Origin: Eledone cirrhosa
Lineage: Eukaryota
Direction of reading: 5' to 3'
DNA: 64,000 bases
Assembly: GCA_964016885.1 (NCBI GenBank)
Contig: OZ024756.1
Span: forward strand, 3,286,001-3,350,000
In this document: one piece after another, positions 3,396-37,292 of the stretch
Layout: the number at the start of each line of letters is the position of its first letter
Position numbering within the stretch: the first letter of the stretch is position 1
Position numbers and translations under genes: made by a program
Notes under the pieces: model-generated
What the model was told of the DNA's origin: nothing
Databases searched by the model: none
Seen by the model: the letters and a program-made list of their open reading frames with translations, nothing else

Positions 3396-3540
3396 CACAC
3401 ACAGAAACAAGATGGCGTAGGACAGTACAAAGGAGAGGCACAAAAACAAAGAAAAGAATCCCCAGTGACTGAAGAGGTCACAAAATGTGTGACGAAAGAA
3501 CCTTGACGATATATAAACAACCATCTGGTTGTGGAACCAA
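3395..3540 (-). mobile_element. Diverged LINE 3'-UTR remnant, similar to 10120-10418
   Basis: Reverse strand reads ...TGGGGATTCTTTTC...TTTGTACTGTCCT..., resembling the 10270-10360 segment. Confidence 0.35.
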
Positions 3541-5961: not shown

Positions 5962-6215
5962 AGTATATATATGTATATATATAGCTAATACACCGAACTA
6001 ACCAGGAATGCAAAATTACAGAGTTATATTAGGTTCACATCTGGAGGAAGTGGAGGAGCGTGTGTGTGTATGTGTGTATGTGTGTGTGCGTGTGTGTGTG
6101 TGTGTGTGTCTGTGTGTATTCCTTCTGTAGTTGTTGTTTTTTATGACAGCTGAATGAGTTGGGGGTAAACAACCTACGTATTTAAGGAAGCTTAAATACC
6201 TGTACATTTTACTGT

Positions 6216-8413: not shown

Positions 8414-8479
8414 TATTTTATCTGATGAAAGCGCACCATAATTTGCCTTGATGGCCCTTGAAATATGTATAATAAAATA
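8414..8479 (+). ncRNA. Minimal type I hammerhead ribozyme (family C)
   Basis: Stem I TATTTTAT/ATAAAATA, CTGATGA (8422-8428), stem II AAG..CTT, GAAA, stem III A-T[ATGT]A-T, cleavage triplet AUA. Confidence 0.8.
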
Positions 8480-8684: not shown

Positions 8685-8750
8685 TATTTTGTTATACATA
8701 TTTCAAGGGCCACCAAGGCAGATTATGGTGCGCTTTCATCAGATAAAATA
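8685..8750 (-). ncRNA. Minimal type I hammerhead ribozyme (family C)
   Basis: Reverse strand: TATTTTAT CTGATGA AAGCGCACC...GGCCCTT GAAA TATGTA T A ACAAAATA. Confidence 0.7.
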
Positions 8751-22203: not shown

Positions 22204-22538
22204 TGTGTGTGTGTGTGTGTGTGTACATCACGCTCCTGTAAAATCTACAAACACACTCATATACACCCACTCACACAAACACACTCAAAAATACATACAG
22301 AGGCTCACACACCTATATATTATAATATAATCGTTTCTACTTTAGGCACAAGGCCAGCAATTATCCCAGTACATTACTGGTACTTTATTTTATCGACCCC
22401 GTAAGGATGAAAAGCAAAGTTAACCACGGCGAGATTTGAACTCAGAAAAATTCATATATATAAAAGGCTGAATGAGTTGGGTTATATAATCCAAGAGACT
22501 TAAGTACCTGTATTTGTCATTATCGTATAAAATCTTAT

Positions 22539-28389: not shown

Positions 28390-28572
28390 GAGGTTCTACA
28401 GGACTAGAACTGTTTCATTCGTGAGAAATCATCAGGAAGCTTCCTGGTAATTTCTCACGAATGAAACAATTCTAGTCCTGTAGAAGCTCTTCTATATTAA
28501 AACTTGTATACTCTGCTATGTTTTGAGTACCTTACTTACTGTGGTTACCTCCGATTCAACCCGGAATAACTT
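28385..28572. mobile_element. Family D fold-back element; hammerhead on the minus strand (28392-28443), mutated mirror on the plus strand
   Basis: Palindrome centred on GGAAGCTTCC; minus strand CTGATGA TTTC[TCAC]GAAT GAAA CAG[TTCTAGTC]CTG T A. Other D fragments at 19490-19552, 36000-36122, 46018-46080 and 58127-58257. Confidence 0.8.
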
Positions 28573-36862: not shown

Positions 36863-36917
<55 letters not shown>

Positions 36918-36991
36918 TATATACATATTATATATATATATATACATTTATATATGTATATGTATGTATATATATATATACATATATACAC

Positions 36992-37216
36992 TGTGGAAAA
37001 AGTTTGGTAGAAATATCCAAGGGTAAGAGCACTGAGTGATAGGAGGAATTTAGTATAAATAATTACAACTGTGACATAAACAAGTACTTAAGTTTCGTTA
37101 GTTCCTGCACCCAACCCATCCAGCCTGTCATAAGAACAGATATTATCACAGGCTGAATGAGTTGGGATCTAGAACCTAACGAAACCTAGGTACTTGTTTA
37201 TGTCACTGTTGTAACC

Positions 37217-37221
<5 letters not shown>
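36992..37221. mobile_element. Family L fold-back element
   Basis: 37064-37130 and 37147-37214 are inverted; tail on the minus strand extends to 36992. Confidence 0.8.
37148..37197 (+). ncRNA. Hammerhead with 8-nt variant core CTGAATGA (family L)
   Basis: ACAGG CTGAATGA GTTGGG[ATCTAGAA]CCTAAC GAAA CCTAGG T A CTTGT; stem III is the palindrome ACCTAGGT. Confidence 0.7.

Positions 37222-37292
<71 letters not shown>

Follow-up and report, generated by a model that had tools for sequence, protein, structure and literature searches.

A hammerhead-like motif with an extra core nucleotide at the 3' end of a decayed Hydra-clade Penelope-like element family in Eledone cirrhosa

The stretch of Eledone cirrhosa DNA analysed here, hereafter the window, is 64,000 nucleotides long and contains a head-to-head inverted pair of short repeat copies, both ends of which run into (TA)n. 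The right arm (37143..37222, plus strand) is a 5'-truncated 3' end (pLTR) of a Hydra-clade Penelope-like element (PLE) of subfamily B type; it ends without a tail in (TA)n, and the target microsatellite on that side occupies 37221..37289. With 7 of 67 sites differing from the subfamily B majority, this arm is about 10% decayed. The left, or mirror, arm (36995..37140, minus strand, boundaries approximate) is the same element end with a decayed core, CTGGATGG, and a PLE "tail" extension of about 55 nt, and a TA-rich tract lies on its side (about 36865-36990). PLE insertions are known to be 5'-truncated, to adjoin an inverted copy and to have the tail at just one of their ends (PMC8557442). The window copy is a relic and probably inactive in place, because RNA transcribed across the pair is predicted to collapse into a single long hairpin (-82.7 kcal/mol), burying the motif described below. 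The pair (37040-37230) also scores on several miRNA-precursor models, far below the gathering score; we discarded these E-value matches as miRNA models fitting an inverted repeat. PLE hairpins of this inverted-pair kind could yield small RNAs if transcribed.

Within the right arm, positions 37148..37197 (plus strand) have the stem and core layout of a type I hammerhead, with three stems round a junction and stem I at the open end. Stem I has 5 bp and pairs ACAGG (37148..37152, plus) with CTTGT (37193..37197, plus; CUUGU in RNA, where the family majority is CCUGU). The core strand (37153..37160, plus) reads CUGAAUGA, or CTGAATGA in DNA, and in the numbering of PMC3088659 consists of C3 U4 G5 A6, an extra A (A6a), U7, G8 and A9. 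It is followed by the 6-bp stem II (37161..37180, plus), in which GTTGGG (37161-37166) pairs with CCTAAC (37175-37180) around an 8-nt loop, G10.1-C11.1 being the closing pair. The remainder (37181..37192, plus) comprises G12 A13 A14 (GAA, 37181-37183), the 8-nt palindrome ACCTAGGT (37184-37191) running from A15.1 to U16.1, which is predicted to form an intermolecular stem III (computed duplex energy -11.4 kcal/mol), and A17 (37192), after which the cut is predicted. All core letters, that is C3 U4 G5 A6, G8 A9, G12 A13 A14, A15.1-U16.1 and H17, are therefore present with one extra base at 6a/7. The canonical 7-nt spacing CUGANGA is absent; subfamilies A to C of the family have 8 nt with G-A last. 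As that spacing is missing and a natural exception has been published, we call the motif a variant rather than a canonical member.

A three-stem descriptor with the 8-nt core matched the window once, at 37148-37197, and never in 300 dinucleotide shuffles. This bears out the original prediction, which had described a complete hammerhead topology with a core strand of 8 nt in place of CTGANGA; every element lies where it had been placed. Its further claim that standard descriptors would miss the motif also holds, as Rfam returned no hammerhead match at the gathering score in the window or at E <= 10 in 37040-37230. The 8-mer core alone is a weak signal (3 matches in the window, a number reached by 5 of 100 shuffles), and the folding energy of the 50-mer monomer is unremarkable against shuffles (z = -0.10). 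A contig of public run X1, possibly from the same sample, is identical to the window over 37008-37210.

Two further copies of the family lie in the window on the plus strand, at 6140..6215 (core match at 6149-6163) and at 22462..22530 (subfamily A type, core at about 22467). The core had been said to recur at about 6169 and 22467; the second position is right, the first lies instead at 6149-6163, and both copies are damaged after stem II, on its 3' side and in the GAAA. A separate repeat family, marked by CUGAUGA ... UGAAA, flanked by AT-rich pairing sequence and frequently arranged as inverted pairs, occurs in the window at 8417, 17184, 34434, 61774 and 62478 (plus strand) and at 8747, 17060, 26059, 33366, 34297, 50784 and 62032 (minus strand); these window repeats failed the type I descriptor. 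Three more short repeats with CUGA-N-GA ... GAAA cores are found at 3467, 43912 and 58197 (plus) and at 28435 and 19545 (minus), and also at other loci of the genome.

The original prediction had seen that the motif recurs in a repeat family but missed the parent element. Judged by its sequence, the parent is a Hydra-clade PLE, an old and decayed family. Among the 163 motif copies, 37 have a collinear RT/EN-coding stretch on the same strand at most 900 nt upstream; no ORF match lies upstream of the window copy, which is truncated. The reading frames of the family are broken, yet DKT, RWR/RWK and CxCx5C are present, and DKT, RWK-like and CxCx5C motifs with a C-terminal nuclease were found in eight copies (L009, L107, L278, L085, L092, L094, L106, L111) and in a sister family. 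These motifs mark the Hydra clade, which inserts into (TA)n (PMC8557442), and the family copies display (TA)n insertion, 5' truncation, an inverted copy and a one-sided tail. The Hydra-clade PLEs described by Craig et al. 2021 (PMC8557442) likewise have a short single ORF that joins an RT to a C-terminal GIY-YIG-type nuclease, a (TA)n target and a 3' hammerhead, whose core the sister family's resembles. The sister family (L151-L162, L118, L119; for example G000:C2:72347500-72352000) is younger, with about 55% protein identity, open frames of up to 722 codons and partial tandems. Its hammerhead has a canonical core and U-U at 10.1-11.1, and reads CUGA(A/G)GA followed by U in 17 of the 17 motif matches listed from 20 scanned loci. 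Pfam did not recognise the ORF pieces of the family, a generic GIY-YIG search of the genome returned other elements, and a metagenome scan for the family in other animals gave 2 loci, neither of which reaches the 3' end. The 946 protein relatives found are known here from protein sequences alone.

The extra nucleotide had been proposed to be a family trait and not a single mutation, and this is largely correct. In the species' own genome (3.0 Gb) the exact 15-mer GCTGAATGAGTTGGG has 586 matches against 0 for a control, and the 3'-half pattern 765 against 0. A genome search for the core with 8 versus 7 nt had been proposed as a check, and the 7-nt equivalent gave just 30 matches, with family copies lacking one A making up 3 of the 20 inspected; the canonical 7-nt core is thus not the family consensus. 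A profile run over the fetched loci yielded 188 distinct copies, of which 163 span the whole motif and 25 were set aside. In 100 copies not chosen by their core, the linker is 8 nt long in 96, 7 nt in 3 and deleted in 1, with G-A at linker positions 7-8 in 70 and at 6-7 in 14. The trait is not universal in its A6a form, since a derived subfamily reads CUGAAGA-A. An alternative in which the window copy alone gained the extra base, by mutation or through a sequencing error, could draw on that copy's divergence of about 10% from its subfamily, but the 586 exact matches, the 8-nt linker in 96 of 100 unselected copies and the identical public contig all speak against it, and we regard it as ruled out by the genome-wide counts.

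Other details of the locus are private to it. The palindrome ACCTAGGT occurs in 1 of the 163 copies, where the usual family forms are ACTTAAGT (59) and ACTTGAGT (46), and it therefore gives no evidence of covariation. In general stem III is palindromic, ACUUAAGU and ACUUGAGU each self-pairing over 8 bp. The mirror arm had been cited as a second example of the 8-nt core; it has the family length, but its decayed form, two substitutions from CTGAATGA, occurs once in the linker tallies.

As copies decay after insertion, subfamily majorities were compared. They were defined on a tree of the 470 nt upstream of the motif (58 rows, with six long, gappy or duplicate rows omitted). Between the majorities of A and B, 0 of 40 core and stem sites differ, against 40 of 117 UTR sites (Fisher p ~9e-7). 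Loop II differs at 3 of its 8 sites and the 22 nt 3' of the motif at 3, so that this downstream stretch is fairly conserved as well. Subfamily A2 (3 rows) differs from A at 0 of 41 against 19 of 98 sites. The catalytic core letters are unchanged among A, A2 and B. Because core and stems stayed the same in both comparisons while the UTR changed, the A6a core went unaltered through a long period of the master lineage. The B to C step changed 2 of 40 against 23 of 157 sites (p = 0.08) and the C to D step 2 of 42 against 8 of 172 (p = 0.69); constraint is undetectable on these two branches by majority comparison. From B to C, G10.1 became A and one stem III A became G. The latter keeps the pairing as U-G, and the former replaced G10.1-C11.1 by A-C in subfamilies C and D, which still spread. 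Apart from these two changes (U-A to U-G in stem III, G-C to A-C at 10.1-11.1) the stems are invariant. Copy divergence is 0.13 for A, 0.088 for B, 0.084 for C and 0.084 for D, which gives no age order for B, C and D.

A second, older hammerhead repeat in the genome (L171-L180, L183-L205), here family 2, has a CUGAA(A/G)GA core on unrelated stems: stem I is GCAU/AUGC, stem II is long and stem III is a 3-bp hairpin. Its copies lie on average 17% from their majority. Eleven of its loci were chosen by the 8-nt pattern and the rest by DNA likeness. Among 31 arms the core is CUGAAAGA in 12 and CUGAAGGA in 8, and the linker has 8 nt in 29 and 9 nt in 2. Position 7 varies (A, G, U) and the preceding A is mostly kept, a pattern that looks as expected of A6a with a free N7. 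One stem II pair is G-C in 8, G-U in 7 and A-U in 7 of 29, and another is paired in just 17 of 29. The stems of the two families differ wholly, yet pair in each. No collinear PLE ORF was found upstream of family 2 copies, and at two distinct loci a PLE fragment lies on the opposite strand. A repeat with CUGAUCGA ... CGAAAC-AATTGT-A at L133:1480-1560 and L135:1480-1560, the L133 copy lying downstream of a distant PLE nuclease fragment, was considered as a third family and dropped, as its stem I does not close by eye.

The same type of core occurs beyond this genome. Among the 125 matches of CUGAAUGAG...CGAAAC listed from viral contigs, 19 (15 of them distinct) form all three stems of a type I or type III hammerhead, compared with 0 of 120 listed matches of a G8C control. 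These CUGAAUGA-core hammerheads of both types have varied stems (L306, L314, L326, L328, L332, L333, L348, L354, L396, L402, L409, L422, L423), and the contig L314 carries two in tandem. In a prokaryote scan with a tighter pattern, 0 of 120 matches close stems I and II.

The implied novelty of the core does not stand. Perreault 2011 (PMC3088659, Fig. 5, S6) describes a natural variant with the insertion at the same site, after A6, and one marine-metagenome panel of Fig. S6 has the same core letters as far as its text extraction is readable. That insertion gave low but detectable cleavage, was called detrimental and was expected to disturb the U4 contact (PMC3088659). The published variant is rare and microbial with a stable stem III, whereas here a dimer-type stem III accompanies the insertion, which has become fixed in an animal retroelement family of high copy number. 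Linker length is also unexceptional. The metazoan PLE hammerheads of Cervera and De la Pena 2014 (PMC4209133), with their min-HHR and palindromic-helix-III variants, are dimer-type and slow and have the consensus CUGANGAH; 54 of the 56 rows of Fig. S3 carry an extra base after A9, 2 have 7 nt and none has an extra base before G8. As an 8-nt linker is the norm in these hammerheads, what sets the present motif apart is just where the extra base stands: in subfamilies A, A2, B and C it precedes G8. In other respects the two are alike: both lie at the element's 3' end (pLTR) with type I topology, a short stem I, a long stem II and a palindromic stem III that implies dimers, and both come with a mass of truncated and inverted copies (PMC4209133).

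Among Hydra-clade elements, 26 of 26 Hydra rows in File S2 of PMC8557442 begin CUGA-N-GA and none has an insertion before G8, an absence that is partly built in, as the searches used a CUGANGA descriptor. The Poseidon PLE of Anolis (Frangione et al. 2024, PMC11167929) shares a hammerhead at the element end, a one-ended tail and uncut RNA as template; it differs in its canonical C3/G8 spacing, in cleavage that needs the element's protein and in belonging to another PLE clade. Our literature search turned up no A6a core described for a PLE or for any animal genome, although the nearest survey of variant PLE hammerheads, Lunse et al. 2017, may cover it. Nor did we find in print its fixation in an animal PLE family, its sharing by a second repeat family or a subfamily shift to the CUGAAGA-A register; the accessible text of a retrozyme preprint (10.64898/2026.07.22.740005) does not contain the word "core". 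In sum, both the core variant and its setting are known, and the motif is real, family-wide and missed by standard models. Because the variant had already been published, the surprise is limited.

Subfamily D provides a change of register on the same scaffold. Its core, CUGAAGAA, is canonical CUGAAGA plus one base after A9, so that a base stands between A9 and 10.1 in D and none does in A to C; it is represented by 200 exact 16-mers in the genome against 0 for the control, and is the commonest linker of PMC4209133 (18 of 56 rows of Fig. S3 by our count). In the body tree the 13 D rows group together (93/94) within a 100/100 clade that also holds one CUGAAUGA and one CUGAAGGA copy; this clade is nested in C, and C in B. 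A coding-DNA tree of 37 rows, in which one row is visibly chimeric and another mis-cut, has the sister family as outgroup and places the root between A and B-C-D. From the nesting and this outgroup root it follows by parsimony that the A6a form is likely ancestral and D derived, although an AU test did not reject a tree in which B and C group apart from D (p = 0.14). D retains A-C at 10.1-11.1. The C to D step involves only two motif changes, side by side, in which the old G8 is lost and a new G arises one base upstream, rebuilding G8-A9. The double change looks selected, an argument made post hoc. The CUGAAGGA intermediate comes from a single locus, the two arms of which agree. One conceivable explanation, which we offer tentatively, is that an 8-nt linker joining stems I and II is a requirement of PLE hammerheads and that G8-A9 may occupy either register within it, allowing a path from CUGAAUGA through CUGAAGGA to CUGAAGAA without a dead state.

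The same facts could be read the other way round, the family ancestor having had the ordinary PLE register (CUGANGA + 9a) with damaging changes G8U and A9G, so that the ribozyme was already dead and its repair in D came about by chance or by selection. Such a history would agree with a linker of 8 nt, the usual PLE length, and with the two substitutions that separate CUGAAUGA from CUGAAGAA. A dead motif should drift, though, and none of the 40 core and stem sites differs between A and B; the CUGAAAGA and CUGAAGGA cores of family 2 fit only a fixed G-A at the linker end, and phage and published examples have the same core. We consider this history very improbable.

Given the observed topology, parent element, family-wide core and unchanged core and stems between old subfamilies, we infer self-cleavage. 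The motif is likely the 3'-end hammerhead of a decayed Hydra-clade PLE family and in its parents was likely a slow self-cleaving ribozyme, with the extra nucleotide before G8 (A6a) rather than after A9. In such a ribozyme, C3-G8, G5, A6, A9, G12-A14 and A15.1-U16.1 would retain their usual roles and the extra A would bulge out beside position 7, which varies freely. Two motifs would dimerize by pairing their 8-nt palindromes into stem III, perhaps aided by the element's protein, and cutting after GUA would process tandem or read-through transcripts. As the family copies read through the cut site, they were made from RNA uncut there. The low but detectable cleavage of the published A6a variant (PMC3088659) and the same core type in family 2 and in viral contigs favor a ribozyme. 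On the other side, the insertion was judged detrimental in that study, subfamilies C and D spread without G10.1-C11.1 and the monomer folds no better than shuffles, points that may tell against catalysis.

In the main alternative, the motif is of hammerhead descent and was not catalytic in this lineage; the PLE protein would have recognised it as a structured element, in template binding or the start of reverse transcription, and this role would have preserved it, the extra base being tolerated because cutting did not matter. Hammerhead cleavage in the lizard PLE is dispensable for insertion in vitro (PMC11167929), copies of the present family read through the cut site and the loss of G10.1 in C and D did not halt their spread, all of which such a role would accommodate; protein binding could also explain why the stems of the family are invariant rather than covarying. 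It fits less well with position 7 and loop II varying while the catalytic positions are fixed, in two families with unrelated stems, with the same core closing full hammerheads in phage DNA and having been measured as active (PMC3088659), or with the two changes of subfamily D rebuilding exactly the canonical G8-A9. We think a non-catalytic, protein-binding relic unlikely.

The family bears on the question of what PLE hammerheads do: by themselves they are poor cutters, and in the sole in vitro system insertion took place without a need for cleavage (PMC4209133, PMC11167929, PMC8557442). The family offers a natural series on one scaffold, namely the A6a core, A6a without G10.1, a 7-nt core with 9a and a sister with an ordinary core, which can be assayed side by side. 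Searches based on CUGANGA undercount hammerheads in animal genomes. If the two-register switch is real, it would be evidence that selection for catalysis maintains animal PLE hammerheads and that every CUGANGA descriptor has overlooked an A6a class of them. At the 5' side of stem I, family copies such as L009, L024 and L030 have a pyrimidine tract and then ACAG/G before the core, resembling a splice acceptor; in Drosophila Penelope an intron terminates at the 5' end of helix I (PMC4209133).
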